Below, piece after piece: positions 1-26,172 of a stretch of 26,172 nucleotides of DNA; the first letter of the stretch is position 1; every line of letters starts with the position of its first letter. The position numbers and the translations under genes were made by a program. Location: contig JBCNUU010000014.1 of NCBI GenBank assembly GCA_039630545.1, positions 1 through 26,172 on the forward strand, given 5' to 3'. Under the pieces are notes generated by a model. It saw only the letters and a program-made list of their open reading frames with translations. It searched no databases and had not been told where the DNA came from. The stretch comes from Endomicrobiia bacterium. GTDB lineage: Bacteria; Elusimicrobiota; Endomicrobiia; DTEH01.

Positions 1-183
1 TGGATTATAAACTAAAGATTCTGCTTCATCACTTATGCTTATAAAACTATCACCTATGCTTCTTCCTTTTGCAGTATATAATTCAACAGAATAAATAAAA
101 TTAGTGTTAAGAATTATTACTAAAATTTTCGAAAGAATTTTTTTTGCTTTCATGTATATACCTGTATTAATTTCTTTTTTCAT
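1..183 (-). CDS. PorV/PorQ-family outer-membrane barrel, N-terminal fragment (runs off the left edge)
   Basis: Not in the ORF track. Hand translation from ATG at 183 gives MKKEINTGIYMKAKKILSKILVIILNTNFIYSVELYTAKGRSIGDSFISISDEAESLVYNP, open to base 1. SD GAGGT at 191-195; alternative ATG at 153. A signal-like N-terminus is followed by a motif matching the other four paralogues. Confidence 0.8.
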   Translation of the reverse strand, partial: MKKEINTGIYMKAKKILSKILVIILNTNFIYSVELYTAKGRSIGDSFISISDEAESLVYNP

Positions 184-225
184 ATAAAAAACCTCATTTG
201 AATTTATATTATTTATTTAAAAAGA

Positions 226-2769
226 TTACTTTTTAAAATATGCAGATAAAACAACTAAAGGAGCTGAGAAATCAATTGCATTTTCATTAGTAAGCCAAGA
301 ATCAGGAACATCAAAATAACCCTTTGGCCCTAAAGTATCGCTGTTTGGACCTTGGACTAAAAGACCAGGGAATACAATTCCTTTTGAAAGAGTAAGACGG
401 TTATGAACATTCTGAGGATAGTCACTACCTAATCCAGTTACATAGCTTTTAGTAAGAGGATTTTTCCCAAACACATAATTAAGTTGTTCTAAGCAAGCAT
501 CTAGATATTTATTGTCTTTTGTGATTATATAAGCCATCAGTAAAGTTACTCCACTGGCAAGTACCCTTTTGTTTGAAGTATAGGTAAATTCTAAAAGACC
601 TGTTCTGTAAAAATTATCTTTTATATTTATTAACCTTAAAATTCCATCAGCAGTTTGTATTATTTGAGTTTTAATGAATTCTTTCAATGGCGGTTCAGTT
701 TTTGAATTAAAATATAAACTATAATATGCTATGGGATGAACCATATCCCATGATATGTTAGTTATAGGACCTCTACCTGAAAATTGCTTAGTATAATTTA
801 GCTTTACATAATCATAATACTTCTGTTCACCTGTTGTTAAGTATAACTCTGCAGCAGCCCAGAATCTTGCAGATTCATCCTGACCTACAGGATATTCTCC
901 TGTGTTTATGTCAGAAGGATTTTTAAAACCGACAAAACCATTTTTTTCAAGCCAACTCCACGCTTTTTTTGCCGCTTCTAAACACTTGTTTGCAAATTGA
1001 ACATCGTATTTTTTGTATATTCTTGCAGCCTGTGCCATATTTGCAGCAAATACACCTACATTGTGAGACATTACACCAATTATGTAGATCGTATCATTGT
1101 CTTTCTCCGGAGGAGTCCATAAACTTGGAAATTCTTTTGTGGTTGCTTTGTGATAAACCACACCATCTTTATCTTGCATCTTTAACATCCATTCAAGTTC
1201 ATATCTTACTTCATCTAACAAATCTGGAATTCCGTTTCCTGATTCAGGAATATCTAGTTCTTTATCTTTAAACTTTTCTGGCATGATTTCGTAAAGCAGT
1301 AAAAACTGTCCTACTGTGACAGCTGCTGAAGGCAAATATTTTCCATAGTCACCTGCATCATGCCATCCTCCGTTTACTTCAAGTGTGCCTTTTTTGTTTA
1401 ATGAGGGGTGAAATTCCGCAGGTCTATTATGACATGGACCTTTTTTAAAACCTGTAATTTTGTCATCTATTTCTATGCCACACCTCTGTAAGTAGTAAGA
1501 CCTCATAACTTTGTAGAATACTTCGTTGTAAATATTTTCTGCTATAACAAACTCATAACTTTCTTCATTTAAAGAAGGAATGAATATCTTATATCTTCCA
1601 GGAGTAGTTAACTGTGAAAAATCCCCTTCCCAGATGTTATCCTTGGAGGACCTATCTATACCTTTATTTTCCAATTTACCTTTAAATACAACTTTTGATG
1701 TCTTGACATCTATCACTTCAAACTCAGTAGCTTCTTTATCAACTAAAACAATTTTTTTAGAGGTAGGAAGATACCCAACCTGGTTAATTTTTATAGGAAG
1801 CGGTTCTTTTTTAAGAACAAGTACTACTTCTTTGGTTACTGTTTGATCTTTATGTTTCCCGGTAATTTTTGTCCTTCCGGAACCTTTAAGCAATACTTCA
1901 GCATAGCTTTCTTTATTAGTATAATAATTTTTGTTGTCAACAGAAATCTGCACTCCTTCAATTGAAGAAAAATTAGATACAGCGTAGATTTTAACTTTTT
2001 CTCCTTTGGGTGTAAGATTTTTCTTTAAAGGTGTGTAAATATTAAAAAATTGAAAATCATCTACTTTTTTAAGAATAGCACTGCCCCATACTGTGGTCAT
2101 TTGCCATCCTTCGCCATCTCCATTCCAGGTAAGTTGACTTTTTCGCAATTTTCCTTCATCTGCATCATCTATTGCAACATCAAAAAGGTATTCTTTAGAA
2201 TCAATAGGAACTACATAAATTAAGTTTTCTAAAGGTACAGAGGCCTCCAAGTTATAACCTTTATTATCTTGCCATTTTTTAACTACTAATCTGGCATTTT
2301 TTACTTCTCCTCTTGCTAACACCTCAGATATATTTGACCATGACCAAACTTGCACATCACTTCCAGCTTTAAATCCTATTTGATAATCAGTAGGTGTATA
2401 AAACTTCTTTGGCTTATCCGGCGTTTTTTCTCCAATATATAATTCAATGCAGTCTCCATTATAGATACTATCATTTGTTGAAAGGTTGTGTGCAGGAACA
2501 TTATCTCTAACCTTCGCTGCGAGATATAGGTTTTTGCTATCCATTGCCACATATATTTCTGCAGATAAGTCGTTTACTCCATCCCAGCTACCACGAGTTA
2601 CAAGTGATTTTTCATTCAAAATAATTGGTTTACCAAAAGTATTCCATTCCAGGATTTCTCCATCAACTTTTATAATATTATCCTTTATTAAAGGGATCTC
2701 ATATTTTTTACTGCAATAAATGTAGTTTATTAAAGCAGCTATTAGTAAAATTTTTGTAAAAATATGCAT
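226..2769 (-). CDS. Exported GH9 endoglucanase with N-terminal CBM9-like (DOMON-like) domain and CelD_N Ig domain
   Basis: GH9 motifs GGWHDAGDYGKY, NPLTKSYVTGLGSDYPQNVHNR and SWLTNENAIDFSAPL; CelD_N start IKINQVGYLP; CBM9-like IKVDGEILEW...DLSAEIYVAMDSKNLYLAAKVRD...YNGDCIELY...GYNLEASVP. Signal peptide has a Cys at position 19 (possible weak lipobox). SD GGAGG upstream. Confidence 0.93.
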   Translation of the reverse strand: MHIFTKILLIAALINYIYCSKKYEIPLIKDNIIKVDGEILEWNTFGKPIILNEKSLVTRGSWDGVNDLSAEIYVAMDSKNLYLAAKVRDNVPAHNLSTNDSIYNGDCIELYIGEKTPDKPKKFYTPTDYQIGFKAGSDVQVWSWSNISEVLARGEVKNARLVVKKWQDNKGYNLEASVPLENLIYVVPIDSKEYLFDVAIDDADEGKLRKSQLTWNGDGEGWQMTTVWGSAILKKVDDFQFFNIYTPLKKNLTPKGEKVKIYAVSNFSSIEGVQISVDNKNYYTNKESYAEVLLKGSGRTKITGKHKDQTVTKEVVLVLKKEPLPIKINQVGYLPTSKKIVLVDKEATEFEVIDVKTSKVVFKGKLENKGIDRSSKDNIWEGDFSQLTTPGRYKIFIPSLNEESYEFVIAENIYNEVFYKVMRSYYLQRCGIEIDDKITGFKKGPCHNRPAEFHPSLNKKGTLEVNGGWHDAGDYGKYLPSAAVTVGQFLLLYEIMPEKFKDKELDIPESGNGIPDLLDEVRYELEWMLKMQDKDGVVYHKATTKEFPSLWTPPEKDNDTIYIIGVMSHNVGVFAANMAQAARIYKKYDVQFANKCLEAAKKAWSWLEKNGFVGFKNPSDINTGEYPVGQDESARFWAAAELYLTTGEQKYYDYVKLNYTKQFSGRGPITNISWDMVHPIAYYSLYFNSKTEPPLKEFIKTQIIQTADGILRLINIKDNFYRTGLLEFTYTSNKRVLASGVTLLMAYIITKDNKYLDACLEQLNYVFGKNPLTKSYVTGLGSDYPQNVHNRLTLSKGIVFPGLLVQGPNSDTLGPKGYFDVPDSWLTNENAIDFSAPLVVLSAYFKK

Positions 2770-2778
2770 GATAACCTC

Positions 2779-4953
2779 CTAAAAATCTATTCTCAAAACT
2801 AATTGTAAATAAGAATCTGGCATATGATCAGACCACTCTTTGTAATCACCATCACGAGTGTCGGCTATTGAACCGCTTGAACCACCAAAGCCACCTACTT
2901 CTAAAGCTGAGGGATCAGTTTTTTTGTATCTTAAACGAAGATTTATATTTGGAAAAAGTTTTGCTAAGATTTCAGCGTACATTATCTTTTTTGTGTAAAA
3001 ATATTCATGGTACAATTTAACATCGCCTGCGTCGTCCTGTCTGTAGCCAAAGGCAACCTCCAAGTTACTTCTTATGGGAACTTTAGCACCTAATTCTATA
3101 TATGTCTGTTTTATATCTAAAACTTCATCTTTATAGTTTTGTATTCCATAATAAAGCAATAAATTAACTAAACCACCACCTATTTTTGTTGTATTGCCAC
3201 CTATCTCTATAGTTGTTTCTTTTATGTTTGGGTTTACGATACGATTTACTGAAATATAATTTGCAGAAAGATTTAACTGATATTTTCTTAATCCAGCTTC
3301 AATCTCAAACCCTTGCTGGTCATTATATCCAACACCTATTATATGTGCAAATTTATTTTGAAGTATGGTATTTTCATTTCTTCTTTCTACATGAAGAACA
3401 TTTGACTTTTCTTCTACATACCATGGTAGACATACATCAGTATACTGATAAGAACCAAAATCCGGGGTAATTAGTCTGAAACCCCCACCAAAATATATGT
3501 CTTTGTAAGTTTCAGCTACTGCTTTAAATATTAAAGCTTCTCCTGAAGTAACAAGAGGTTTTTCAAAAGGTTCCACATAAAGTATGCTCCTTACTTTTTC
3601 GTCTTTTTCCATATCTTTTTTCCAGTAAGCATATTGTCCTGCCGCTTCATAAGCATATTCTCCACTGAGAGTAATTCTTGATAAACCTTTTATATCTTTC
3701 ATTATGTAATAACCACTTAACCCATATACTCCAAAATCAGAGATTGTTTTGTTTTCTCCAGTGTTTATATCTTTAGCGATTTGATAACCAATCAAAAATG
3801 TTGGATATATAAATATATTTTCACCCAGAGAGGGCTTTCCTTTAGCTCCAAAAATAATTTTCCCTTTCCAGTGATCATAACCTAAAAATGTTTCCCATCC
3901 ACCCGCTCTTCCTATAGAACCTACAATGTGTCCACCGATTAGTCTGCTTTGACCAAAAAGAGAAAAAGGAGACCATCTAAGCCAGAGTGTACCTAATCTA
4001 AAGTTGTCTATGTAAGGTAGAGGATCCTGTAAAGTAGCATATAATTCTTTTATAGAAATTGCATATTCTGGATTGTTTACTATTCTGAAGTCATCTCCAC
4101 GCATAAAATCTATTTTTCTAAAAGGTGTATATCCTGTAATTACATATTTGCTTGGAAGTGCTATTTTGGTTGTAAAAGATAGATTGCCAGAGTAAATTGT
4201 AGGCATAAAATTAATTGAAGTATATAAGCCCTTTCCACCACCTAAACCAGAATCTTTCAGTTCATCGTCTTCGTAATACTCCACCAACATATAACCATCT
4301 GGAATTTTTGCCCATATAGGTTGTTTCATGGAAGGTGCGCCTGATACTATTTCTAATTCATCAATCCAACAAGTTCCTACTATTGGGACATCTCGAGGTG
4401 CTCCATTGTTGTTTAAGGCTATCTGGAATGTAATTGCTACTATTTTTGTCCAATCCAAATCCTGCTGTTGAATGATTCTGCCTGGAGTTGCTCCCCATGC
4501 TTTTTCTGTCATAAATGAAAAAGGAATAATTATTCTTTGCCATTTGTTTCCATCTAATACTATTTCGTTTCTATATTGAAGCTTTCGTTTGTTATTGTCT
4601 TCAACAACCACCCAGAATTCTCCACCGCTTCCGGAACCTTTTACCCATACAGACAAAGCATCAGCAGATGTGAAATCCTTCATTCCTATTACTCTTCGCA
4701 CTACAATCCAGTTATTATCGTAGTCAAACGAATTGATTCTATAATCTATTCTCATACTGTATTCTCCAAATAAACCTTTATCGCTTTTCACATTCACTTC
4801 AGACATGGGACCACTTCCCCACCAGTATAACTGTTCGTGAGATGCTCTTTCAAAATTGTCAAGAGTTTCAACTGACACTATCTTTGCTGAGTATAAATAA
4901 AAATGTAAAGCAAAAATTATTAGTAGAAAATTTAGTATTACTGTTTTTTTCAT
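2779..4953 (-). CDS. CBM11/CIA30-like carbohydrate-binding domain fused to a probable outer-membrane beta-barrel
   Basis: Signal peptide. Residues ~28-203 show LDNFE...DFTSADALSVWVKGSGSG...WQRIIIPFS...LDWTKIVAITFQI...GTCWIDELEIV. The remainder has amphipathic Gly/aromatic strands (LSGEYAY, FGGGFR, LEVAFGYRQ, INLRLRYKK) and ends YLQLVLRIDF with a terminal Phe (BAM-type signal). Confidence 0.7.
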   Translation of the reverse strand: MKKTVILNFLLIIFALHFYLYSAKIVSVETLDNFERASHEQLYWWGSGPMSEVNVKSDKGLFGEYSMRIDYRINSFDYDNNWIVVRRVIGMKDFTSADALSVWVKGSGSGGEFWVVVEDNNKRKLQYRNEIVLDGNKWQRIIIPFSFMTEKAWGATPGRIIQQQDLDWTKIVAITFQIALNNNGAPRDVPIVGTCWIDELEIVSGAPSMKQPIWAKIPDGYMLVEYYEDDELKDSGLGGGKGLYTSINFMPTIYSGNLSFTTKIALPSKYVITGYTPFRKIDFMRGDDFRIVNNPEYAISIKELYATLQDPLPYIDNFRLGTLWLRWSPFSLFGQSRLIGGHIVGSIGRAGGWETFLGYDHWKGKIIFGAKGKPSLGENIFIYPTFLIGYQIAKDINTGENKTISDFGVYGLSGYYIMKDIKGLSRITLSGEYAYEAAGQYAYWKKDMEKDEKVRSILYVEPFEKPLVTSGEALIFKAVAETYKDIYFGGGFRLITPDFGSYQYTDVCLPWYVEEKSNVLHVERRNENTILQNKFAHIIGVGYNDQQGFEIEAGLRKYQLNLSANYISVNRIVNPNIKETTIEIGGNTTKIGGGLVNLLLYYGIQNYKDEVLDIKQTYIELGAKVPIRSNLEVAFGYRQDDAGDVKLYHEYFYTKKIMYAEILAKLFPNINLRLRYKKTDPSALEVGGFGGSSGSIADTRDGDYKEWSDHMPDSYLQLVLRIDF

Positions 4954-4976
4954 TTTTTGCTCCCTTAAAATTAAAT

Positions 4977-5885
4977 TTAAAATTTAGCTACGCAACCAAT
5001 TCTATAAGTATTTGGTAAACCTGTCTGTGATATTAAATATACAAAATCAAATCGCCATGCTCTGAGAGTTAAACCTATACCTAAACTTATATTACTTCCT
5101 CCACTAACCTGTTGGTATCCGACTCTTACATCAAGAAGTCTGTAAATTAAAGCATACTCTCCACCCGCAGAAATAGATTTTTCAGAAATATCGTAATCTA
5201 AAGAAACCAAAGCTTTTTTCTCTAAATTGTAAGCGACACCTGTTCTTATATTTGAAACGTTAGATCCATCAACTTGGTTGTTTCTATAACTTACTCCTAC
5301 TCTTAATAAATTTTTGTCCATTTTCATTGAATATAAAACGCCTATATCATATCCCAAATTCATATCTACAAATGTTTTTTCTTGTTGAGCAACTACATTT
5401 CCATCTTGATCATATACAGTAGAAAATATATCAGGTTTGTCCTCATATAATCTGTGCAAAAGTTTCAAACTTAAACCTGCATATAGTTCCGAAGTAGGTT
5501 GGGTTACTAATCTTCTTGCATAACTTAAACTGAAAATTTTTTCACTATAGTAAGAAGAAAAACCTAATATGGAAGCATTGATACCCAAAGCTCCTTTTCC
5601 TTTATCAGGAGTAGCTATACCTAAGTAAGAATAAGAAAGTTCAGGAATGTTGAAAAGTTTGGTATACATTAAAGAAACCTCTTTGTAGATTCTGTTTTGT
5701 GCTAATCCAGCAGGATTAATAAAACTTCCTTCTGATTCTTCTGCAATGGCTGTGTAAGCACTTCCAAAACCTAAAACTCTTCCACCAACATTTTTTACTC
5801 CAGAAAATTCAAAAGATGAAAAAGAAATCGTAAATAATAAAAACTCTGCTATAAATATTTTTACTAATGGATTTTTATTTTTCAT
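4977..5885 (-). CDS. PorV/PorQ-family (FadL-like fold) outer-membrane barrel
   Basis: Signal peptide; GGRVLGFGSAYTAIAEESEGSFINPAGL; YDIGVLY; LDVRVGY; about 300 aa; terminal Phe (GCVAKF). SD GAGGAG. Confidence 0.82.
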   Translation of the reverse strand: MKNKNPLVKIFIAEFLLFTISFSSFEFSGVKNVGGRVLGFGSAYTAIAEESEGSFINPAGLAQNRIYKEVSLMYTKLFNIPELSYSYLGIATPDKGKGALGINASILGFSSYYSEKIFSLSYARRLVTQPTSELYAGLSLKLLHRLYEDKPDIFSTVYDQDGNVVAQQEKTFVDMNLGYDIGVLYSMKMDKNLLRVGVSYRNNQVDGSNVSNIRTGVAYNLEKKALVSLDYDISEKSISAGGEYALIYRLLDVRVGYQQVSGGSNISLGIGLTLRAWRFDFVYLISQTGLPNTYRIGCVAKF

Positions 5886-5915
5886 TTTTTACTCCTCTTG
5901 TGTAAAAGTTAATTC

Positions 5916-7400
5916 TTATTTAACTTTGTAACTTTTTACTAAAGCTGTAGTATACTTAGTATAAGTTGTGCCATCTATTTCAACATCTACTTTTATAATG
6001 TAAATTCCAGGAGGAACCAGTTTGTCGTTGTTATCATATCCTCTCCAGGATATTACAGCATTTCCTCCAGCTAATGGTTGTTCAGATATGTAGTTTTTAG
6101 CAGTATTTTTGTCTGCTATCAATTTACCTGAAGAATCATAAATCTTTAAACTTACTTTGCCTGATTTTGTAGAATCTCTCAAAGAAATCAAGATTACAGT
6201 ACCTCCACCCTGAACTTTTTTTCCATCTTTTAGTTCAAGTAGTTCTCCTGTATCTCCAGGATAAAAAACCTGAGGAGAAACTTCTACTTTTTTTATCATA
6301 CTTTCTTCTTCTGTAGACTTGCCTGTTTTAGAATATGCTACAGGGTAGGAGTTTGGATCGCTTGGGTCTGTTGCCGCTGCAAACTCTTCGTAGTCGTTCC
6401 ATCCATCATTATCTGTATCCTTTGTCCAAGTAGAGGTATCATAGGAGATTAAATATATATCATCTACCCACACTTCTCCAGTTCGCGCACCATCAGCTTT
6501 TCCCATGGTTTGAAACTGTATTGCTTTTATTTTGTCAAATTTTCCTCTGGTTAGTCTTGAAGGTTTATCTTCAAGAGGTGGATATTTTGTGGTGTCCTTA
6601 AGCTCTTCTCTTCCTAAAGATTGTCTAGGTTCAGTTGCTTGGGTGCCATCTTGAAGAGTATCATATGGTTCCAGGTCGTCATAAGGATCACCAAAATATC
6701 TATCGTTATCAACCCATGCGAAAGGCCACCCACCATCTTGTAGTTTGTTAAAAAGTATTACATGAAATTGCCAATCACGAGAAAGTTGTCTTCCAGAGGC
6801 AGAAGCAATTCCTACCTCTTTTGGCACATCACCATAGGTACCAGGTGCAAGTTTATATGTGAGTTTTATTTTTACTTCTTTTCCTCTTCCTGTAGCATTT
6901 AATATGTCATCCGAAACTTTCATCCAGAAAGCAATACCATTGAATTCTGAAAGATCTACATATTGTTTTATCTCTACTGAAGGCAAATCTTTGTTTTGTC
7001 CTACATCTATAAAATTTGTTCCCATGGAAGCATATGCATAGTTAAAATTGCTTCTGCCTACATCAAATCTAAAATATCCACAGTATTTACTGTTTTTCAC
7101 ACCATGAGGTTGTGGTTGAAACGGTGTAGCAGTTCCAGTGGGATCTGGTTCTGGAAAAACGAATGAATGAGTTGAACCGTTTACAACTTGAGGTCTTTTG
7201 TATCTTAAAGTTACAGGTTCAATTTCTCCCAAAACATCGGCTCTGTCATCAAATGTAAACCAGTATCCTCCAAACTCGTTTCTGTGGTTTCCATCTTCAA
7301 AGTTATCAACTAAAACTCTTTTGTATTGTTGCGAATAGGAAAAACACCATATTAAAAAAATGATAGAACTTCCTATTATTGCTTTTTGGCTGATTTTCAT
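5916..7400 (-). CDS. Exported, apparently non-catalytic glycan-binding protein: CBM11/CIA30-like domain, TSP3-like Ca-binding motif, C-terminal FlgD-Ig/T9SS-CTD-like domain
   Basis: LVDNFEDGN...GGYWFTFDD; YVDLSEFNGIAFWMK; DWQFHVILFNKL; KIKAIQFQ; GEVWVDDIYL; DTDNDGWNDYEEFAAATDPSDPNSYP; CTD VSPQVFYP...VSLKIYDSSGKLI...ISWRGYDNNDKLVPPGIYIIKV. SD AGGAGG. Confidence 0.78.
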   Translation of the reverse strand: MKISQKAIIGSSIIFLIWCFSYSQQYKRVLVDNFEDGNHRNEFGGYWFTFDDRADVLGEIEPVTLRYKRPQVVNGSTHSFVFPEPDPTGTATPFQPQPHGVKNSKYCGYFRFDVGRSNFNYAYASMGTNFIDVGQNKDLPSVEIKQYVDLSEFNGIAFWMKVSDDILNATGRGKEVKIKLTYKLAPGTYGDVPKEVGIASASGRQLSRDWQFHVILFNKLQDGGWPFAWVDNDRYFGDPYDDLEPYDTLQDGTQATEPRQSLGREELKDTTKYPPLEDKPSRLTRGKFDKIKAIQFQTMGKADGARTGEVWVDDIYLISYDTSTWTKDTDNDGWNDYEEFAAATDPSDPNSYPVAYSKTGKSTEEESMIKKVEVSPQVFYPGDTGELLELKDGKKVQGGGTVILISLRDSTKSGKVSLKIYDSSGKLIADKNTAKNYISEQPLAGGNAVISWRGYDNNDKLVPPGIYIIKVDVEIDGTTYTKYTTALVKSYKVK

Positions 7401-7425
7401 TTATATCCTCCTAAAAATTTTAAAT

Positions 7426-7446
7426 TAATACAAGTTATTACAAGTA
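7426..7446. repeat. Tandem direct repeat ACTTGTA with a 10-bp period (candidate operator)
   Basis: Plus strand taatacaagt-tattacaagt (7426-7445), just downstream of the putative -10 box. The repeat is seen directly; the operator role is inferred. Confidence 0.4.
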
Positions 7447-7447
7447 A

Positions 7448-7477
7448 ATAATATAAAATTTATTTATAGTTTGTCAA
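7448..7477 (-). promoter_or_regulatory. Putative sigma70 promoter upstream of the CBM11-CTD gene
   Basis: Perfect -35 TTGACA at 7477-7472, followed by TATATT (16-nt spacer) or TATTAT (18-nt spacer), in an 82-bp intergenic gap. The AT-rich background weakens the -10 call. Confidence 0.55.
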
Positions 7478-7482: not shown

Positions 7483-8013
7483 TTAAAAATATATATGGAA
7501 AGAAATGTTTAAATCTAAATCTCTACCAATACCAAATGTTATAATTTGAGTAGAATTATCTCCAGCATTAGGTCTACTTTCACCTAACAAAACTAAACCT
7601 ATTCCTAAAGGAATCTCAAATGAGAATTTTTCTGTGACAAAAATTTCAGGAATAAAACCAACAGAAATATGAATGTTTGTCCTTGTGGCATCTTCTTGAT
7701 GAGTATCATCCATAATTATTCCACCTTCTACAAACTTTTCTACTTTTACTTTTTTAAAATCCCAGAATTTGCTTCTTATTCTTAAAGCTCCTCTTAAATC
7801 AAATTCTGCATCATCATCGTTTTCTCTCTTTGTTTCATAAAACATTCCAAGGATTAACTGTAAATTAGTATTTTGCATTGCTTTTTTAAAAGAAATACCA
7901 TTATAAAAACTTTCATAACCTAAAGCATCAAATAATCTGTCTTGTGTGTAAGATAAACTTATAGAGATTAAAATTGCAAATAAAGAAATCCAGATAGATT
8001 TTATTTTTTTCAT
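7483..8013 (-). CDS. Small (probably 8-stranded) outer-membrane beta-barrel protein
   Basis: Signal peptide; 176 aa; alternating strands (GISFKK, LQLILGMFY, HISVGFIPEIFVTEKFSFEIPLGIGL); ends LNISFHIYF. SD GGAGG. Confidence 0.7.
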   Translation of the reverse strand: MKKIKSIWISLFAILISISLSYTQDRLFDALGYESFYNGISFKKAMQNTNLQLILGMFYETKRENDDDAEFDLRGALRIRSKFWDFKKVKVEKFVEGGIIMDDTHQEDATRTNIHISVGFIPEIFVTEKFSFEIPLGIGLVLLGESRPNAGDNSTQIITFGIGRDLDLNISFHIYF

Positions 8014-8096: not shown

Positions 8097-10226
8097 TTAT
8101 TTCAATACAAAAATAATTCCTCTGTTACCAGTTTTTGTTTTATAAAAATAAATTCCAGAGGATACTGTGTTTGAATTTTTATCTTTGCCATCCCACAAAT
8201 TGCTTTTTATCTCTGTAATTTTTTTGCCATTAACATCGTATATATAAACTTCATCTGAATCAAAAGATATCAAATCATTTATATAATCGTTATTTAAACT
8301 TATTACTTTTTTTGTATTGTTTAAAGCTTGGTTACCTTTTGATAATGAAAAAATTTCTATCTGAGGTGAATTAGGCAACTGCCTTTCTATACCTCCATTG
8401 TTTTTGGATTTTATAATTAAATTGTAACTACCAGTAACATTTGAAATTTTGACATTTCTTATAAAAACATCAAATTTTTCTCCTTTGAAAATTTTTAAGA
8501 ATTTCATATGTAACATTTTATCTGTAAAATCATACCAAAGCAAAACAGGACTTCCATATCTATTAATTATTTCAAACTGAGATGGTGAATCCAATATGGT
8601 TAATTCTTCAGGAAAAATAAAAATTATATCTGCTAATTCTAAATTTGCAGTTGCTGTATAAGAAAAAATAAAGTCGTGTAGAGTATTTTGAAAAACTTTA
8701 TTGGGGGATACATCAACTTTACCCGTTCCATCTCCTTGAATGGATTGTTTTGCTTTAATAGTTAAATTTACAAAATAAGAATAAGAACTTTGATTTATGT
8801 TATAGACTGTTGCTTTCAAAGTTCCAGTAGAGTTTAGAAAATTATTAATATCTAAATCATAAATCAATTCAAAAACTTTACTTGAAATTGAAACTTCGTG
8901 TATCAAATTATTGTTATATGTAAGTTGTATTTTTCTGAGCTCAATTTCATCTTTTGCTAAAACTTTTATTTTTATATTTTCGGATATAATTTCATCTTCA
9001 AGTGGATAAAGTATTTGACATGTAGGAACAGTAAAGTTTGAAGTTGTTTCTTTAGCAAAATTTGTAAAATTTCCTGTCATAGTCAACATTGTTAACATTT
9101 TTAGGCAATCTTGATAATATCCCCAACTACCTCCGTTAGGATAATTTTTGAGTTTATTATATAAAGAATTACAATAGCCTTGAAAATTTTCATCTATCAT
9201 ACTTCCAACTCCAAAAGGTCCTATAAAGGCTGCATTGCTGTAGTTAACAAGAGGAGTCCCATTGATTTGATAACCAGATACTATCCTATCAACATTTCCT
9301 TCGGTAGAAGTAACAAGCCAGTTTAAAATTTTATTATTTATAGAATATGCTCTTTCTTCACCATACCATATATAATCTATTCCCACTCTCCACGGAATTC
9401 TACAAGCATCGTAATAGTAATTGTATCCATAACCCTCAACAGATTTACCTTCAGCGTTGCACCAGTCAGGTATTAAACCTGTTTGAGAATGAGCTGCTTT
9501 TTCCAAAATAGAATAGCAGCTGTCTATAACTTTCTGCCAATTTTCATCTTTTGAAATTTCTTTAAATATTCTCCACCACGAGAAAGCAAAATAACTAGGA
9601 TTAGTAATGTCTGACCCTCCAAAACTATCTCCTGGTCTTAAGATGTAAGAGGGTTTTTCTACTTGATATTTCATAATTTTTGAAATTATTTTTTTTGCTT
9701 CTTCTAAATAGTTTATAGCACCATCACTTCCCCATTGATAATGAGCAAAAATTAAAGCTAAAGCTACATCTTCATCTGCATCAGTTGCAGCGTTGTAGCC
9801 TATTATATTGCCGTCTTTATCTATCTGCCAGTTCATAAGTCCATTCTGGTCAAGATAACACTGATAATATCTATAAAGTCCATCAAAATAGCATCTATTT
9901 GTATTTATATGATTATCTGTAACAACTAAAATTAACATTCCATAACCAATTCCCTCTGAAACTGTATCAAAATTGTTTGCAGAACCTCTTTGAATCCTAT
10001 AGGTTCCCTTTGGTGCACCTGATTTTGTTAAATAGTTACTCTTCCAGGCCAAAAAAGTATTTTGAAGATGTAAATACATCTCTTCATTTGTGAAATTATT
10101 TGGTTTTATTCCATAAGGATATTTCTTAAATTGAGGAAAAGCGAATTTAGCTGCTAATAGATGATTAAAAAGAGTAAACAGAAAAAGTAAAATTTGATAA
10201 TACTTGTTTATACTTGTATTTTTCAT
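8097..10226 (-). CDS. Exported GH8 endoglucanase (CelA-like) with Ig-like domain(s) and a short C-terminal CTD-like domain
   Basis: GH8 motifs DTVSEGIGYGML (catalytic Glu), NAATDADEDVALALIFA, TNPSYF, GLIPDWC and YYYDACRIPWR; Ig-like PTCQILYP...IKIKVLAKD; tail ISLNNDYINDLISF...VYIYDVNGKKI...WDGKDKNSNTVSSGIYFYK...IIFVLK. Confidence 0.92.
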   Translation of the reverse strand: MKNTSINKYYQILLFLFTLFNHLLAAKFAFPQFKKYPYGIKPNNFTNEEMYLHLQNTFLAWKSNYLTKSGAPKGTYRIQRGSANNFDTVSEGIGYGMLILVVTDNHINTNRCYFDGLYRYYQCYLDQNGLMNWQIDKDGNIIGYNAATDADEDVALALIFAHYQWGSDGAINYLEEAKKIISKIMKYQVEKPSYILRPGDSFGGSDITNPSYFAFSWWRIFKEISKDENWQKVIDSCYSILEKAAHSQTGLIPDWCNAEGKSVEGYGYNYYYDACRIPWRVGIDYIWYGEERAYSINNKILNWLVTSTEGNVDRIVSGYQINGTPLVNYSNAAFIGPFGVGSMIDENFQGYCNSLYNKLKNYPNGGSWGYYQDCLKMLTMLTMTGNFTNFAKETTSNFTVPTCQILYPLEDEIISENIKIKVLAKDEIELRKIQLTYNNNLIHEVSISSKVFELIYDLDINNFLNSTGTLKATVYNINQSSYSYFVNLTIKAKQSIQGDGTGKVDVSPNKVFQNTLHDFIFSYTATANLELADIIFIFPEELTILDSPSQFEIINRYGSPVLLWYDFTDKMLHMKFLKIFKGEKFDVFIRNVKISNVTGSYNLIIKSKNNGGIERQLPNSPQIEIFSLSKGNQALNNTKKVISLNNDYINDLISFDSDEVYIYDVNGKKITEIKSNLWDGKDKNSNTVSSGIYFYKTKTGNRGIIFVLK

Positions 10227-15734: not shown

Positions 15735-16580
15735 TTATTTCTCCTTTTTATCTAAGAATTTATAAGTTGCTATTCTATAAACATCTTCATTTGTATTTGA
15801 ATCTCTTCCATCATACAAAGTAGAACGGTATCTTATAAAACCACTATCAGGATAATTAAAATTATATGTCTTTATCCAACTACAACAATACAAAGGATGA
15901 ACATCAGAAAATGTCTTTGTCACATTAAAGGTATGAAAAAATGTATGAGCGTTATCTATTACATTTATTCCCCACTTTTTTCCTTCCTCTGTGATAGATG
16001 CACTTTTAGCTGGAGTAGTTAAGGTAAGTTCAGCTCCAGTTTCATAATCCACAAGTCTTCCACCTGTAATATCTAAAATATCCCAAGCTATTTCCTCACC
16101 AAAACTCTCCGTGTAGCCTCCACTACTTCCTATAACCCAGAGTGGATAGTCTCCTATCCAGACAATTCTTCCTCCTGCTTTTAGATACTTGTATAAAATA
16201 CATTCTTTATTTCTGGGAGTAACTAAATTTCTAGGGGCCACACCCATAGCCATTACACATGAAGTACCATAAGCAGATTCTTTTTCTACATGATACTCCA
16301 TCCAAGCCTGAAGTTCAAGTGCATTTAATCTTTTAAATCCTTTTTTTTCTAAAAAAGAAACTAAATTTTGTGGATAAACTACCCAACTAGTTGTATAATC
16401 ATTATCATAAAACACAATGAATTTTGATTGTGCTAATTTTTCCTTATCTATTTTAACAACTTCTTTTTTTGTAATTTCTCCTTCTTTGTTTATAATTGGA
16501 TCCCAGCTAAATCTGTCCACTGTTGTACAGCTTATAATAAAAAATAAAATTAACCATCCAAATGATAACTTGTTTTTCAT
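15735..16580 (-). CDS. Lipoprotein of unknown function, possibly with a class I GATase-like/flavodoxin-like alpha/beta fold
   Basis: Lipobox-like FFIIS-C18 after a basic N-terminus and hydrophobic core; ILYKYLKAGGRIVWIGDYP resembles the 'l..yl..GG.l' element of GATase-like domains; ATGA overlap with the upstream gene. Confidence 0.6.
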   Translation of the reverse strand: MKNKLSFGWLILFFIISCTTVDRFSWDPIINKEGEITKKEVVKIDKEKLAQSKFIVFYDNDYTTSWVVYPQNLVSFLEKKGFKRLNALELQAWMEYHVEKESAYGTSCVMAMGVAPRNLVTPRNKECILYKYLKAGGRIVWIGDYPLWVIGSSGGYTESFGEEIAWDILDITGGRLVDYETGAELTLTTPAKSASITEEGKKWGINVIDNAHTFFHTFNVTKTFSDVHPLYCCSWIKTYNFNYPDSGFIRYRSTLYDGRDSNTNEDVYRIATYKFLDKKEK

Positions 16581-17883: not shown

Positions 17884-18294
17884 TTATTCTGTAAATGAAA
17901 TATTTGTTATATTAGCTGCTGCACAGGCATTTAAAACATTTACCACATTTTGGTGATGTGTTTCTTTATCTGCTTCAATTATTACCGATTGATCAGGGAA
18001 AAACTTCTTAAGTCTAGAAAGTAAACCAATTAGTTCAGGAATTTCATATTTTACCACCTGATATTCTTTGTTTCCAACAAATATTCTTCCATATTTGTCT
18101 ATTCTTACAACTACATCTTCCATTTTTTTCTGAACCACTTGTTCTGACATAACAGGAATATTAGACCTTAAATCCCTTTCATATTTTTGGAAAGTAGTAG
18201 CACACATGAAAAATATTATAAGTTGAAACACTATATCTATCATTGGTGCCATCTGCATTTCAACTTGTTCTTCTTCTGGTTCCTGTAGTTTCAT
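17884..18294 (-). CDS. exbD: ExbD/TolR-family biopolymer transport protein
   Basis: MAPMIDIVFQLIIFFM transmembrane segment with the conserved Asp; periplasmic VIIEADKETHHQNVVNVLNAC..ANITNISF. SD GGAGG. Confidence 0.93.
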   Translation of the reverse strand: MKLQEPEEEQVEMQMAPMIDIVFQLIIFFMCATTFQKYERDLRSNIPVMSEQVVQKKMEDVVVRIDKYGRIFVGNKEYQVVKYEIPELIGLLSRLKKFFPDQSVIIEADKETHHQNVVNVLNACAAANITNISFTE

Positions 18295-18313: not shown

Positions 18314-18730
18314 TTATTCTCTTTGTACAGATGTAAACGCTATTTTACTTATACCATTTTCCGAACAAGCTTTTATGGCTTTTAAAACATATTTATGAGG
18401 TGTTCTGGCATCTGCTCTTATAGTAGCAGAAAAATCTACTTCAGGATTCTTTTTTACTGTTGTATATATTAAGTCAACTAATGAGTTTTCATCATATTTT
18501 CGCTGATTAACTACATATGTCCCATCTACTTTTATATTAATCAAAATTTCTCCAGGATTTGGTTGTTTCTCTTGAGAGTAAAAAGCTACTGGTAATTTTA
18601 TATCTTCTTCCACCTGTAAGTTATTAAATGTTGAAACAACCATAAAAAATATTATAAGCTGAAATACTATATCTATCATTGGTGACATTTGAAAACCTAC
18701 TTCTTCTTCTTTTTGAGGTTTTAATTTCAT
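18314..18730 (-). CDS. exbD: ExbD/TolR-family biopolymer transport protein
   Basis: MSPMIDIVFQLIIFFM with the conserved Asp; LPVA; TIRADARTPHKYVLKAIKAC..NGISKIAF. SD GGAGGTGAGG. Confidence 0.93.
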   Translation of the reverse strand: MKLKPQKEEEVGFQMSPMIDIVFQLIIFFMVVSTFNNLQVEEDIKLPVAFYSQEKQPNPGEILINIKVDGTYVVNQRKYDENSLVDLIYTTVKKNPEVDFSATIRADARTPHKYVLKAIKACSENGISKIAFTSVQRE

Positions 18731-18778: not shown

Positions 18779-19594
18779 TTATTCTTCTTGTTGAGAAGCA
18801 GTTCCTCTTTTGCTATAACATAAATTATCAATAAAATCCGAGGCTAACACACTTAAATGTGTGGCAATATTTCTAATTTTACCTCTAATAAAGAAATAAA
18901 ATGACATCACAGGTATTGCTATTATTAAACCTGCTGCAGTTGTAATTAAAGCTTCAGAAACACCCTTAGCAAGAAGTTCTGGTTTTCCTAATCCTGCCTG
19001 AAAAGCTATAACATTGAAGGCATTTATCATACCAGTAACAGTACCTAAAAGACCCAACATTGGGGCTACTACTGCTACAGAATTAATATACATATTTTCC
19101 TGTGTAAGATCTCCTATCACTTTATCCAGCGTTTCGCCTACTACTGCTTCTATGTCATTTTTTCTATAATCTCTTTTCTCTATACCAGCTAAAAAAGCTT
19201 TACATATCACTAAAGGTGAATTTTTACATATTTCTGTAGCTTTTTCATATTCTTTTGCTAAAATTAAATCGTTCACTTCTTTTACTATTTTAGGATCAGA
19301 AAAATTTTTGAGTTTTAATTTAAAAACCAACATGTCTATAATTAAAGCCGTACCAATTATAGAAGACAAAGCTAATGGTATCATTACTGGACCACCGGCT
19401 ACTAATAAACCCCATAATGTCATTTTTGGAGCTTCTGCTGGTGGTTGTTCAGGTTGAGGCATCGATAGATCTAAAGGTACCGCTTGTTGAGTTTGCTTTT
19501 GCTGTTGCGTCTGAGCTACTAAAAGTGAACTATAACATATTATACAATAAAGAAAATTTAGTACCACAATCGCTTTTAAAACCTTTTTCATCAT
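18779..19594 (-). CDS. exbB: MotA/TolQ/ExbB proton-channel family protein with an N-terminal signal peptide and Gln/Pro-rich linker
   Basis: GGPVMIPL; APMLGLLGTVTGMINAF; LAKGVSEALITTAAGLIIAIP; adjacent to two exbD genes. SD AGGAGG. Confidence 0.93.
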   Translation of the reverse strand: MMKKVLKAIVVLNFLYCIICYSSLLVAQTQQQKQTQQAVPLDLSMPQPEQPPAEAPKMTLWGLLVAGGPVMIPLALSSIIGTALIIDMLVFKLKLKNFSDPKIVKEVNDLILAKEYEKATEICKNSPLVICKAFLAGIEKRDYRKNDIEAVVGETLDKVIGDLTQENMYINSVAVVAPMLGLLGTVTGMINAFNVIAFQAGLGKPELLAKGVSEALITTAAGLIIAIPVMSFYFFIRGKIRNIATHLSVLASDFIDNLCYSKRGTASQQEE

Positions 19595-19615: not shown

Positions 19616-22453
19616 TTATTTTAATTTTTCTGCAGCTTTTGATGCATATTCTGAGTTAGGATATTTCTGAACTATTTCTTTATACATCTCTTTGGCTTTT
19701 TCTATTTCTCCTAACTTTTCATAACAGTTACCAGCTTTAAAGTAAGCAGGTAATAAGTATTGTGGCTGGTTTCCATAAACCAAAACTATTTTAGCATAAT
19801 ATTTTAATGCCTGTTGATAGTCTTCAATTAGAAAATAGCTTTCTGCCAACATAAAAATCCAATCAGGACCTTCCTTTTCTTCTAAAATTGGAACCACCTT
19901 TTCTAATATTTCAGCTGCTTTTTTATAATTACCTATTATATAATAACTTTTTCCCAAAGTCTGCAGTACAACTGGCACATTTTGTAATTTTGAGTAATAG
20001 GGTCCTACTAAAGAAACTACTTCACTACTTAATGTTTTGTCATTTAAAGCAATATAACACTCGCTTAAGCCCCAGGCGGCGTTTTCGGCTGTTTTACTTT
20101 TTGGTGCTGTTTGAATAGATTTTTTATAATAAGTATATGCATTTTTATAATCTTTGCCATTAAAAAATATATCTGCTATAAAATAATATTCATCAGCATT
20201 TCCTTTGTATTTTGATAAACCATCTTCAACCATATATAAGTATTTTACAGCAGATGTGTAGTCTTTTTTAAGATAATAAAACTCTGCTACCTTTAAGGCT
20301 ACTATTGTGCCTACTTTAACAGATTTGTATTGATCTATAATTTTACTAAGTAAACCAACAGTCTCTTCTTCTGTTTTTGATAATTTTTTCATTGATAATT
20401 CAAAAATTTTATCTACTATTGAAAATAAAATAGATGTTTCCAATTGGGGTTTTTCATAAAAAGATAAAAGTTTAATATATTCATTTATTGCTGATTCATA
20501 TTGTTTAAGTTTTTCAAAACATTCTGCTTTATCATACTGTGCAACCACTACATTTTCATCATCAGGAAATTTAACTATTAAGTTTTCAAAATAAGATGTA
20601 GCATCTTGATATAAGCCTTGCTCTTTATTAAACCAACCAAGCCAGTACAAGGAAGTTGGTGCTACTTTAGGATCATCTGGATATTTTTCTAAAATTTTTT
20701 TAAGCATCGCAGCCATATCTGAGTATTGTTTATTTTCTTTATACACCACAGCTACCTGCAACATTGCATCTTTTACCATTTCATGGTTGGGATATCTATT
20801 TACAAAATCAACATAATAGTTTATAGCATTCTGATAGTCTTTAAGTTCTAGATATAAGTTTCCAATTATTATTAACACATTTGGTACTTCAGGATCAGTT
20901 GGGTATCTATCTATAAAAGTATTATAGTAAAAAATAGCATTTTTTAAATCACCTATAGTTTTGTAAATTTCAGAAAGTTGAACTATTGCTGCTTTTACAT
21001 ACTCTTGTTCATTTGGATGTTTTGAAAGTATATTTTTATATTCCTCTATAGATGTTTTATAATCTTTTAATTCAAAAAATGACATTGCAAGATTACTTCT
21101 TGCCACCACTGCATATTCACTTGAGGGAAATTTTTCCAGAAATTCTTTATATAATTTTATAGCCTCACGATACTCTTTAATCATAAAAAATGAAGTAGCT
21201 ATTATATAAGTTGCAGGTTCTATATACTCTTTTTTTGTAAAATTAAATACTCCATTTTTATATTCGGATGTAATAATTTGGTATACTTTATCATTAAAAA
21301 GTGCTTGAAGAAGTTGAATTTTTGCATCTTCATCCTTAATTTCTGCTATTTTCTTCACAAGTTGGTCGTACTTGCCTTGTTTTGCAAAAAGAAGAGCTTC
21401 TGCTTGCGGAATTTTAGCTATTATTTCTTTTTCTTCTTTGTATTTTGTTTTAAGTATGGTAAATGTTTTATCTGCTATATCAAGTCTTCCCTTAGCTAAA
21501 TAACAGCTACCAATTTTGAATAAAGTTTCGGGATAAAAATTTTTAGATTCTTTTGCTTCTTGATAAAGAGCTTCGTAATCATATTCTTTCCACCATTGTT
21601 GTTCTTCAACTCTATCATATAAAGTCTCAGAAAAAGTTGCTTCAAGACCGCGTCTTTTGGCTTCTCTATAATCTTTAAGTTTTGCTTCTACAATTTTTAA
21701 AAGCTCTTGTTTATCTTTTACCATATTGTAGTAAATAAGTGCTTTATCGTAATCTCCCTTTATAAAGAAGTATTCAGCTACGTTAAAATAAATTTCATTT
21801 AATCTGATAATGTTTGGAGATTTCTCTACATCTTCTAATCTTTTAAGTGCTTCCTGAGGTTGTTCTTTTTGCAAAAATACTCCTATAAGAAAATACTTAA
21901 CATCAGGCATCAAAGCACTTCTTTTAAATTTTCTTTCCATATCTTTAAGGACAGAGATTGCTTCGTCCAGTTTTTGTGAATCATATAAACTTTTTGCTAG
22001 ATTAAAATATGCTAAAGGTAAATATGGACTTGAGGGAATTTTATTTATAAACATTTGATAAGAAACAACAGCATAATCGTGTTTTTTCTTATTAAAATAA
22101 TACTCTCCTATAAAAAACAAAGCTGTTTTACCAATTATTTCATCTTTATAATCTCTCGCTATTTCTTTAGCAACAGAAAACATTTCATCGTACATTTTAT
22201 TTTTATAGTAACTTACCATCAAATTAAATTTCGCTTCTTTATAAATATCTTCTAAATCTTTATATTTAGTTGTAATAACTAAATACTTAGCTATTGCCGC
22301 ATCATATCTACCTTGATCCATTAACTTTTCTGCTTCTTGATACATCTGGATTGCCTCTGACTGTTTCGGATTAGAAATTTGTTCTCTTATTTGAAATATA
22401 CTTTGTACCAGAAAGAAAAAAGTTAAACCTATAAGTCCTAATTTTGTAATCAT
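19616..22453 (-). CDS. Large exported tetratricopeptide-repeat protein (BamD/CpoB-like repeats)
   Basis: N-terminal hydrophobic signal or anchor, no lipobox. Many TPR units (e.g. EAIKLYKEFLEKFPSSEY, NAINYYVDFVNRYPNHEM), ending AGNCYEKLGEIEKAKEMYKEIVQKYPNSEYASKA. Confidence 0.9.
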   Translation of the reverse strand: MITKLGLIGLTFFFLVQSIFQIREQISNPKQSEAIQMYQEAEKLMDQGRYDAAIAKYLVITTKYKDLEDIYKEAKFNLMVSYYKNKMYDEMFSVAKEIARDYKDEIIGKTALFFIGEYYFNKKKHDYAVVSYQMFINKIPSSPYLPLAYFNLAKSLYDSQKLDEAISVLKDMERKFKRSALMPDVKYFLIGVFLQKEQPQEALKRLEDVEKSPNIIRLNEIYFNVAEYFFIKGDYDKALIYYNMVKDKQELLKIVEAKLKDYREAKRRGLEATFSETLYDRVEEQQWWKEYDYEALYQEAKESKNFYPETLFKIGSCYLAKGRLDIADKTFTILKTKYKEEKEIIAKIPQAEALLFAKQGKYDQLVKKIAEIKDEDAKIQLLQALFNDKVYQIITSEYKNGVFNFTKKEYIEPATYIIATSFFMIKEYREAIKLYKEFLEKFPSSEYAVVARSNLAMSFFELKDYKTSIEEYKNILSKHPNEQEYVKAAIVQLSEIYKTIGDLKNAIFYYNTFIDRYPTDPEVPNVLIIIGNLYLELKDYQNAINYYVDFVNRYPNHEMVKDAMLQVAVVYKENKQYSDMAAMLKKILEKYPDDPKVAPTSLYWLGWFNKEQGLYQDATSYFENLIVKFPDDENVVVAQYDKAECFEKLKQYESAINEYIKLLSFYEKPQLETSILFSIVDKIFELSMKKLSKTEEETVGLLSKIIDQYKSVKVGTIVALKVAEFYYLKKDYTSAVKYLYMVEDGLSKYKGNADEYYFIADIFFNGKDYKNAYTYYKKSIQTAPKSKTAENAAWGLSECYIALNDKTLSSEVVSLVGPYYSKLQNVPVVLQTLGKSYYIIGNYKKAAEILEKVVPILEEKEGPDWIFMLAESYFLIEDYQQALKYYAKIVLVYGNQPQYLLPAYFKAGNCYEKLGEIEKAKEMYKEIVQKYPNSEYASKAAEKLK

Positions 22454-25900: not shown

Positions 25901-26101
25901 CCACCATTGAATAGTAAAAGAGGAAAGAACTATTGATGCAGAAATCCCACTTCCTATAATAGTAGTAGAAGAAAATGTTCCATCTAAAAAATCACTTGCT
26001 GAAGTTTCGGTGTAAATATGCAGTGTCCCTTGTTGAGCAAACAAAAAATTAGAAATTATTAAAAACGGCAATATTAGAGTAAAACAAATGTATTTTTTCA
26101 T
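22994..26101 (-). CDS. Large exported surface protein: DUF2341, L-type (ConA/legume) lectin-like domain, four PKD domains, T9SS-CTD/FlgD-Ig domain
   Basis: DUF2341 WWDSNWRYRR...KMKNDCSDIRF...IWIKI...IYMYYGNP; lectin-like FSLTKT...AGAIF...DGGEGMTFMF...LGF...YGLELD; PKD cores WNFGDG, WWFGD, WDLGDG, WSFGDG; CTD IYPVPF...ISYYL...VVIYDMFGRIIK...GWNTINWDG...VHSGVYVCKL...KFIIFR. Confidence 0.85.
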   Translation of the reverse strand: MKKYICFTLILPFLIISNFLFAQQGTLHIYTETSASDFLDGTFSSTTIIGSGISASIVLSSFTIQWWDSNWRYRRVLYVFNFVNQQLNNFQVLFTTNTKALISAGKMKNDCSDIRFVAEDNQTLLPHYIESGINTENTKIWIKISTIPAGSINNPSYVKIYMYYGNPQAVSAADGRAVFEVFEDFSSDPRTSGYWDVYDRNQPTSACVWNSTARNFSLTKTAGGTAGAIFIKNYSLPTTSSWQAKFRYCVTNYNNIADGGEGMTFMFYKQKFAAGSYPDTGSYLGFTSGGSGPGYGLELDAVWSGETDVNNAAHFALIKDVTYPHIAGTPYSTDAVRDEKWYTVEFTFTQYTSSSNIFVRTIDPNGVFMDRINYTAIIDKTYTSLGFSAASSGNEHIIDDIMVRKYVYPEPVVIDDGEDPKDFYYALGSYRSGVFDCGAPSVISSVTWTANVPPSTFLDVFVFGSTDAVNYNWIKLQKDKEINILTNGSLIEYSIIFYSTVAYSVKDQQGRNVLGIRETPRFDDITFYYRTRSAPILQLTTFYFIEYNWQMNQFTVYVDFSNSYDLDGQIVRYMWNFGDGEVQTTQVPYVTHTYYTTPASTYTFTYTTFTFTVTAFDNDGFYSYINILIPLPATPEILTIPEEPPIEIPKIFPVAKISGESIKQARINQPVTFDCSDSYDPDGEITDVFWWFGDYETSISSGSFNEFKTVSHTYVDIGTFTVELYVLDNDFLVSSTTVKVIVRGYPHAKITSSKHILNETKTIVLGYSEELELKALAEYPNGNIVEYIWDLGDGNIITSTSSEIRHVYSSVTSSYTVILTAVGDDGLISTDSVKILFSATPVIDVIVPLDCEVEKEVTFDASSSVDIDGTIVSYVWSFGDGTSASGKIVSHIYKKEGNYKVTLVVTDNMGLTSSKEFVINVSKKTTPSQEDVYLDKNTLNIYPVPFRISQKNLNISYYLDEDADVFVVIYDMFGRIIKNYEFVKGAPGGIKGWNTINWDGVSNSNELVHSGVYVCKLMLKNKSKKYLTEKFIIFR

Positions 26102-26109
26102 TTTTTTAC

Positions 26110-26172
26110 CTATTTACATACTACTATATATTTATATTCCACTCTCCCAGATCTTTTTACTTTACAAACATA
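26110..26172 (-). CDS. C-terminal fragment of an upstream gene, probably another CTD/FlgD-Ig-bearing exported protein
   Basis: Not in the ORF track. Hand translation gives YVCKVKRSGRVEYKYIVVCK-stop (TAG at 26112-26110), 8 nt before the next ATG. It mirrors the neighbour's ending (G)VYVCKL...KFIIFR. Only 20 codons are visible. Confidence 0.55.
   Translation of the reverse strand, partial: YVCKVKRSGRVEYKYIVVCK

Follow-up and report, generated by a model that had tools for sequence, protein, structure and literature searches.

Related systems and the locus

Polysaccharide utilisation loci of the Bacteroidota are defined by SusC/SusD, and the AglRQS motor of Myxococcus, with Glt/Nfs, combines one TolQ-like and two TolR-like proteins with tetratricopeptide repeat (TPR) and TonB-like partners on outer-membrane complexes. 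Type IX secretion (by the T9SS) has been described as confined to the Bacteroidota and their allies and as dependent on GldLM for the energy that empties the SprA pore. Here we analysed a stretch of 26,172 nucleotides from an Endomicrobiia bacterium (contig JBCNUU010000014.1, positions 1 to 26,172; hereafter the window), in which a predicted proton-driven motor of the ExbB-ExbD-ExbD type is encoded among PorV-like barrels, exported proteins with a C-terminal domain (CTD)-like tail, and glucanases. We propose, with a probability of about 0.45, that the tailed proteins of this cassette would be exported through a SprA-like pore and held on PorV-like carriers, and that the motor would pull the carrier complexes by way of a TonB-like arm and an anchored TPR protein.

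Loci with the order TPR-tolQ-tolR-tolR in the Planctomycetota-Verrucomicrobiota-Chlamydiota (PVC) superphylum encode SHLS force transducers with a vWA head, and their function is given as not known (PMC12204202). The first-pass annotation of the window named no description of a comparable system, which has to be corrected for the TPR-ExbB-ExbD-ExbD arrangement, since this is in print for PVC (PMC12204202). The present cassette shares with those loci a TPR gene, one tolQ-like and two different tolR-like genes in the same order, and a transducer with an S-x3-H helix, a disordered linker and a non-TonB head; it differs in that the head of the Elusimicrobiota transducer is not vWA, in that the transducer gene lies upstream of the TPR gene or elsewhere, and in the presence of PorV-like carriers, tailed cargo and a large barrel. 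Judged by its predicted proteins, the cassette resembles the PVC class but fails to match it in the vWA head; new are the predicted cellulolytic host and the transducer head for a motor of this type.

Energy is needed in Flavobacterium at release from SprA (PMC10994853), and type B T9SS cargo has cognate PorP/SprF shuttles (PMC12618676). As in the SprA-PorV system of the Bacteroidota, the host genome encodes a candidate SprA-like pore, PorV-family barrels and C-terminal Ig-like tails (PMC10994853), and as in the type B cargo-shuttle layout, a carrier gene lies directly behind a cargo gene (PMC12618676). In contrast to the Bacteroidota T9SS, the SprA-like protein is shorter (1733 aa versus a 2319-position model) and scores below the cut-off, and GldL/M/N and a PorU-type peptidase were not found, in searches in which the controls did not match either; a further difference lies in the 18 PorV-like paralogues, with type-A-like tails. 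As in SusC/SusD loci, glucanases, binding modules and outer-membrane proteins are clustered and share a candidate operator, whereas no SusC/SusD was found in the host genome and the inner-membrane uptake genes are those of an ATP-binding cassette (ABC) transporter and a glycoside hydrolase (GH) family 94 enzyme. Uptake by ABC transporter and GH94 is known from Gram-positive cellulose degraders. Relative to the Ton system, an ExbB/ExbD motor is present, and the locus has no TonB_C protein or plugged receptor. The cassette is like Myxococcus AglRQS in having one TolQ-like and two TolR-like proteins with TPR and TonB-like partners, and differs in that its partners are PorV-like. No paper linking a T9SS to Elusimicrobiota was found in a search that did not cover subscription papers or supplements. 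Elusimicrobia are described as largely without cellulases, yet one member was enriched 500-fold on cellulose (PMC7031533). The SprA/PorV/CTD set described here would carry a full cellulase kit in a phylum said largely to be without cellulases.

The window is the entire contig C6 of the host genome (G000; 1.60 Mb, 82 contigs, 95.5% complete). Because the cassette ExbB is 91% and 87% identical to Endomicrobia and Elusimicrobia proteins, the host is a member of the Elusimicrobiota and not of the Bacteroidota; the first-pass annotation had named a Bacteroidota host with a canonical T9SS and susC/D just outside the window as grounds for rejecting it, and no SusD or SusC-type receptor was found in the genome. 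Other G-numbers denote genomes of the phylum (G005 being of the same genus) and L072-L079 are metagenome loci; domain calls were made by Pfam and NCBIfam profile searches of the window proteins. The single packed co-directional cluster that had been noticed is borne out, with 18 full open reading frames (ORFs), every one on the minus strand, and intergenic gaps of −22 to 83 bp; as was also predicted, the locus carries on beyond both contig ends in relatives. It consists of two joined modules: a motor-carrier-cargo cassette (module A: tagged cargo, TPR protein, ExbB, two ExbDs, PorV-like barrels, a lipoprotein and a large barrel) and a set of glucanase genes (module B: GH8, a predicted barrel fused to carbohydrate-binding module (CBM) family 11, here the CBM11-barrel, and a tail-less GH9), the latter having a repeat motif in common with other cellulase genes. 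The features of module A, in the direction of reading, are as follows.

26110..26172, minus strand: last 20 codons of a CTD-like tail, likely of a giant fn3/PKD(/CBM11) cargo that extends beyond the contig; the translation resembles the tails of upstream giant genes in G002 and L072-L075
22994..26101, minus strand: 1035-aa exported cargo with DUF2341, four PKD domains and a CTD-like tail (domain and tail profiles); kept in G002, G003, G009 and L072-L078
22463..22981, minus strand: 172-aa membrane protein with about six hydrophobic segments and no family match; kept in G002, G003 and L072-L076, not in L078 or G009
19616..22453, minus strand: 945-aa TPR protein with a conserved N-terminal helix, likely an uncleaved inner-membrane anchor (profiles and N-terminus comparison)
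18779..19594, minus strand: ExbB/TolQ-like motor subunit of its own clade (PF01618; tree)
18314..18730, minus strand: first ExbD/TolR-like protein (PF02472, PMID motif)
17884..18294, minus strand: second ExbD/TolR-like protein, about 35% identical to the first (PF02472, PMID aspartate)
16577..17878, minus strand: PorV-like barrel with a low-complexity C-terminal tail and a conserved helix at its end (NF033709 52 bits; profile versus PorV 6H3I, E 0.005; tail alignment)
15735..16580, minus strand: 281-aa predicted lipoprotein (from sequence), no family match, overlapping the stop of the preceding PorV-like gene
14025..15731, minus strand: 568-aa exported protein with a weak CBM11/CIA30-like N-domain (E 0.011), PKD and a CTD-like tail (profiles)
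13119..14006, minus strand: PorV-like barrel immediately behind its likely cargo, 14025..15731 (NF033709 110 bits, above the cut-off)
12205..13113, minus strand: PorV-like barrel (NF033709 74 bits)
10277..12226, minus strand: 649-aa predicted large outer-membrane barrel with no Plug, Pfam or NCBIfam match (Atlas model)

The motor, its TPR protein and a TonB-like transducer

The gene order TPR-ExbB-ExbD-ExbD given in the first-pass annotation was confirmed by Pfam matches; the conserved Asp and Thr motifs of the ExbB/ExbD motor are present, and the PMID aspartate is retained in both ExbDs. The cassette ExbB forms its own clade of seven rows (support 100/100), separate from the housekeeping ExbB, in a tree in which the MotA rows are long branches; the housekeeping ExbB tree tracks host families. 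Over the first 22 aa of the TPR protein, 9-18 positions are identical in seven orthologues versus 4-8 for neighbouring signal peptides; conservation so far above that of the neighbouring signal peptides suggests an anchor, and the N-terminal helix is likely to be an uncleaved inner-membrane anchor.

A 435-aa transducer gene lies between the cargo and TPR genes in six metagenome loci (L072-L076, L079) and in G009. The protein has one membrane helix with S-x3-H, a long linker rich in Q, K, P and G, and a globular head of about 120 aa. S125-x3-H129 is invariant in all seven aligned transducers, with the distal L and S positions of SHLS not scored; the head gave only a weak DUF4114 match (E 0.02) and no vWA match in profile searches. 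TonB_C was not found in the transducer, and its only match above the cut-off in the host genome is in a TolA-like gene of the tol-pal cluster; membrane helices with S-x3-H number two in that genome, one in the transducer and a TolA-like one. In the host, the transducer gene stands away from the cassette at C12:29412 (C12:28769-31055, L082), behind an extracytoplasmic function (ECF) sigma gene, and the same is seen in G003 (L081); in all, it was found in 3 of the 41 genomes of the class. These comparisons indicate that the predicted SHLS-type transducer belongs to the motor cassette and has moved away in the host. Elsewhere this genome has a pair of MotA/MotB-like sets, as well as a FliG-domain/TPR protein whose gene stands behind a PorV-like one (C34:12028-13542, C2:16520-18675 and C12:56392-58287).

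Export components in the host genome

The SprA-like ORF encodes 1733 aa at C12:74846-80047, with three TIGR04189 stretches and an Atlas feature score of 0.99 to SprA_N clusters, and relatives of it are present in 38 of the 41 class genomes. The absence of SusC, SusD, TonB, SprA and PorKLMN that had been reported is correct for the window; the genome, however, has this SprA-like gene and the TonB-like transducer elsewhere. The related proposal, that tails and PorV-like proteins serve secretion or surface display, is plausible; its reading as a system without SprA and TonB is not supported.

With our own profile, 31 proteins with a CTD-like tail were counted in the genome, along with 18 PorV-like genes, leaving out one weak match and one PorV with an internal match. 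The genome has about 1343 genes in all, yet twelve of the 18 PorV-like genes immediately follow a tailed gene, and a further two immediately precede one. In the window, the five PorV-like barrels of the first-pass annotation correspond to four full genes matching NF033709 at 55, 74, 110 and 52 bits (cut-off 90) and a fifth cut at 1-180; the cut-off is passed only by 13119-14006 in the window and by three loci genome-wide. Likewise, the four to five CTD-tagged proteins are four full ones and the tail end of a fifth (26110-26172); TIGR04183 is at or above its cut-off for GH8 (23.3) and for 14025-15731 (31.2).

GldL, GldM and GldN had no match in the host genome, in a search in which no control genome passed the cut-offs and which did not include GldK. 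The PorU-type peptidase C25 (PF01364) had no match, and the controls gave none either. SusD (PF07980) had no match, with the B. thetaiotaomicron control matching. No SusC-type receptor was found: the genome has only two TonB-dependent receptors, with BtuB/heme as best models (TIGR04056, 52 bits versus 368), one of them in the cobalamin operon. Two further observations concern export-related genes: one tailed ORF extends past a contig end and measures at least 6718 aa (C34:121050-141206), and the housekeeping ExbB lies near the SprA-like gene together with another large TPR gene and a barrel-like gene of 485 aa (C12:82233-87149, L002).

Distribution of the cassette among relatives

The conserved synteny that had been suggested as a check was found: G003 has an identical gene order across the whole locus, G002 has the same order with a 14.5-kb insertion after GH8 (LacI, GH9, ABC binding protein and pentose genes), and the order is kept in metagenome loci. 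The metagenome scan gave nine loci: L072-L076 (61-63% TPR identity), the fragment L079, L077 and L078 from an organism of 63% GC content, and L080, which was unrelated and was dropped. L078, readable as far as the 649-aa barrel, retains at 23-61% identity a giant cargo, PKD cargo, TPR, ExbB, ExbD, ExbD, a PorV-like gene, the lipoprotein, a further cargo, a pair of PorV-like genes and, last, that barrel. A PorV-like gene stands immediately after the second ExbD in G002, G003, L072, L074-L076 and L078.

Among 401 genomes of the phylum, the TPR profile matched in four (top two candidates per genome scored), the 649-aa barrel in three, the CBM11-barrel in ten (full length in three, the CBM alone in seven) and the lipoprotein in nine, in five of these as a stand-alone gene. 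These counts rest on draft genomes, and kin among them are not independent. In other Elusimicrobiota, larger proteins were also seen to contain one or two copies of the lipoprotein domain (L098 and L099, in G316 and G341).

The same-genus genome G005 (96% complete) holds GH48, four GH9 matches, GH94, GH8, GH5, ABC genes, a SprA-like gene and a 176-aa barrel, and profile searches of it gave no match for the cassette ExbB orthologue, TPR, transducer, lipoprotein, 649-aa barrel or CBM11-barrel. G009 (93% complete) has cargo, transducer and TPR, that is, the start of the cassette, and no GH9 or GH48 was found in it. Cassette and cellulases are separate in G005 and G009, and the pattern of predicted gene content across the relatives argues that the motor is neither a general export motor nor essential for cellulose use.

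Proposed function and alternative explanations

In the mechanism that we favour, tailed cargo would undergo Sec export, and its cognate carrier would then recognise the tail at SprA. Because no PorU-type peptidase was found, the cargo would remain on its own PorV-like carrier. The motor would be an accessory machine that releases, positions or moves the surface complex of the cassette; it most simply acts on the carriers, because it is encoded among them and because release from SprA needs energy (PMC10994853). Glucan fragments might enter via a barrel needing no TonB box (the CBM11-barrel or a small barrel) and be trimmed by the tail-less GH9, and the ABC transporter would pass the products to the GH94 phosphorylase, encoded on C12. 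The locus also gives TPR-tolQ-tolR-tolR motors a context with a testable substrate, in which induction, GH8 display and oligosaccharide uptake can be assayed.

Several findings weigh against this mechanism. The SprA-like protein is below threshold (TIGR04189 79 bits, E 1e-22, cut-off 200) and had no sequence match in PDB. Searches did not recover the transducer in G002 (88% complete) or in L078; in the host and G003 it has an extra N-terminus of 105 aa, in frame, whose HxxxCxxC anti-sigma-like motif leaves room for a role in signalling. Glucanases accompany the cassette in all three genomes that have it in full, G002, G003 and L074-L076 have GH8 next after the 649-aa barrel, and the giant upstream cargo of G002 carries CBM11 (E 4e-19). 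G005 is in about 90 contigs, so that the absence of the cassette could be an assembly gap, and the TPR gene of G009 ends at 170 aa near a contig end. Finally, within the 20 kb read, G057 and G065 have a PorV-cargo-PorV-lipoprotein unit but none of the motor genes, which shows that carriers can occur apart from the motor.

An unlikely alternative is the model of the first-pass annotation, in which the motor, through the TPR protein or the TonB-like arm, powers the uptake of glucan oligomers by way of either the 649-aa barrel or the CBM11-barrel as a SusCD-free equivalent. Consistent with it, the 649-aa barrel and the CBM11-barrel are full length in just 3 of the 401 genomes, the same three that have the full cassette, the predicted barrel adjoining the tail-less GH9 has a glucan-binding module fused to it, and no SusC-type receptor was found in the host. 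However, the three full-cassette genomes are close kin, so that this co-occurrence amounts to one event; no Plug domain was detected by Pfam in the 649-aa barrel, the 724-aa CBM11-barrel or other window proteins, and the transducer is without TonB_C. The motor as glucan importer is further weakened by the cellulase, ABC and GH94 kit of G005, which comes with no match for either barrel or the motor, and by the cassette start of G009 without GH9/GH48.

Rather improbable, too, is a cassette that has nothing to do with glucan use, working in the envelope or in adhesion, and that landed beside cellulases; its transducer, fused to an anti-sigma part, may by now have a role in surface signalling. This would fit the internal promoter-like sites and repeat motifs, which are only at glucanase genes, the 14.5-kb insertion at the module boundary in G002, the cassette start of G009 without GH9/GH48, and the cassette ExbB as a separate clade of patchy distribution; it is opposed by the CBM11 on the giant upstream cargo of G002 and by GH8 standing directly after the cassette in six loci, with 43-62% barrel identity. 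Equally doubtful is a broader picture of a surface cellulase platform without Gld motor or SusCD, in which a shortened SprA would export GH48, GH9, GH8 and GH5 onto private PorV-like carriers while the motor, with a new transducer head and the TPR arm, would feed glucan through the CBM11-fused barrel. That the motor is a general GldLM replacement powering all SprA-like export in the lineage, as the lack of GldL, GldM and GldN matches and its position among carriers and cargo might suggest, is very improbable and largely refuted by distribution, since 38 of 41 class genomes have the SprA-like gene and the cassette TPR, with the top two candidates per genome scored, matched in four of the 401 genomes of the phylum.

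Glucanases, candidate barrels and regulation

The remaining features of the window, from module B onward, are as follows.

8097..10226, minus strand: GH8 glucanase with Ig domains and a CTD-like tail (PF01270; motifs)
10200..10220, plus strand: repeat motif (operator candidate) at the start of GH8, found in G003 as well (motif comparison)
7483..8013, minus strand: 176-aa likely 8-stranded barrel (sequence pattern)
7427..7477, minus strand: promoter-like TTGACA site, then direct repeat ACTTGTA-N3-ACTTGTA (21-nt stretch identical in G002 and G003)
5916..7400, minus strand: 494-aa exported protein with a TSP3 repeat, a CTD-like tail and an N-domain without family match (profiles)
4977..5885, minus strand: PorV-like barrel immediately behind its likely cargo, 5916..7400 (NF033709 55 bits)
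2779..4953, minus strand: 724-aa protein with CBM11 and a predicted barrel ending in Phe, candidate glucan channel (CBM11 profile; low-confidence model)
226..2769, minus strand: GH9 glucanase with CBM9_1 and CelD_N, no tail, likely periplasmic (PF00759; motifs)
1..180, minus strand: 5' part of the fifth PorV-like gene, which the contig does not hold in full, with a repeat motif near 148 (sequence and relatives)

The GH8, GH9, CBM9- and CBM11-like assignments of the first-pass annotation were matched by Pfam: PF01270 for GH8 (E 6e-62), PF00759 for GH9 (E 2e-84) with N-terminal CBM9_1 (E 4e-19) and CelD_N, and CBM11 at the N-terminus of the 724-aa protein (E 2e-7), closest to CtCBM11 of CelH (E 2e-6). 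A CBM-like domain had also been assigned to 5916-7400 and was not recovered by Pfam, PDB or our own CBM11/CIA30 profile. SEGIGYGM, ATDADED and YYYDACR in GH8 and WHDAGDY and TNENAI in GH9, which we take to be the catalytic motifs, are all present. Tail profile searches found no CTD-like tail in the window GH9, which is therefore likely periplasmic.

The three other probable barrels that had been listed are less well supported. An Atlas model of the 649-aa protein matches large barrels, MtrB/PioB among them, at TM 0.63-0.69; the C-terminal part of the 724-aa protein is a strand meander in a low-confidence AlphaFold model from eight sequences (pLDDT 43); and the 176-aa protein was recognised by sequence pattern. 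A crude strand count did not distinguish the barrels from soluble controls. Kinship of the 649-aa and 724-aa barrels was rejected by profile comparison (probability 0.15%). In G005, the 176-aa barrel gene lies directly upstream of a run of ABC binding protein, GH94 and permease genes; the host has genes for the ABC binding protein, for permeases and for GH94 at C12:203754-210499. A 536-aa barrel-like gene without family, directly 5' of an ABC sugar cassette (C1:125526-127136), was noted as a candidate TonB-independent sugar porin.

TTGACA sites sit in the gaps of 83 and 82 bp, and a 21-nt direct-repeat stretch after the second of them is identical in G000, G002 and G003. The repeat ACTTGT(A)-N3-ACTTGTA occurs at window positions 7447, 10200 and 148 and at C12:6470, C12:213281 and C3:31823 of the host, and in G005 it precedes the GH8 and GH9 clusters (L124:16991 and L125:10346). 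With a matrix trained on the window locus and its orthologues only, six sites of at least 18 bits were found in the host, versus 0-3 in each of five shuffles. Two of the six had been used in training and another is the orthologue of a site so used; the remaining three, independent of the training, precede a cargo gene with CBM4_9, a GH9 gene and a LacI gene. Regulator genes of the host include a LacI gene (C3:31922) and a GntR/LacI gene (C12:248510). At 12 bits there was no excess (33 versus 30-42), and the combined promoter and terminator count over 1-13200 was at chance level (60 versus 66 +/- 10). No repeat motif was found in the motor block, whose promoter falls beyond the contig. Co-regulation of the glucanase half with other cellulase genes is thus modestly supported by the motif comparison.

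The cellulase kit of the host comprises eight GH9 matches, two GH48, GH8, GH5 and GH44. Large cellulose/hemicellulose clusters were observed at C12:1-32000, C12:203754-254381 and C1:111950-131072, holding two GH48, GH9, GH8, GH44, GH5, GH52-like, GH94, ABC genes, an FGGY kinase and a xylose-isomerase-like gene, with some GH48, GH44 and GH9 being without a tail. A GH9 gene at C12:232936-236082 is broken by a single TGA stop and is one ORF in G002.

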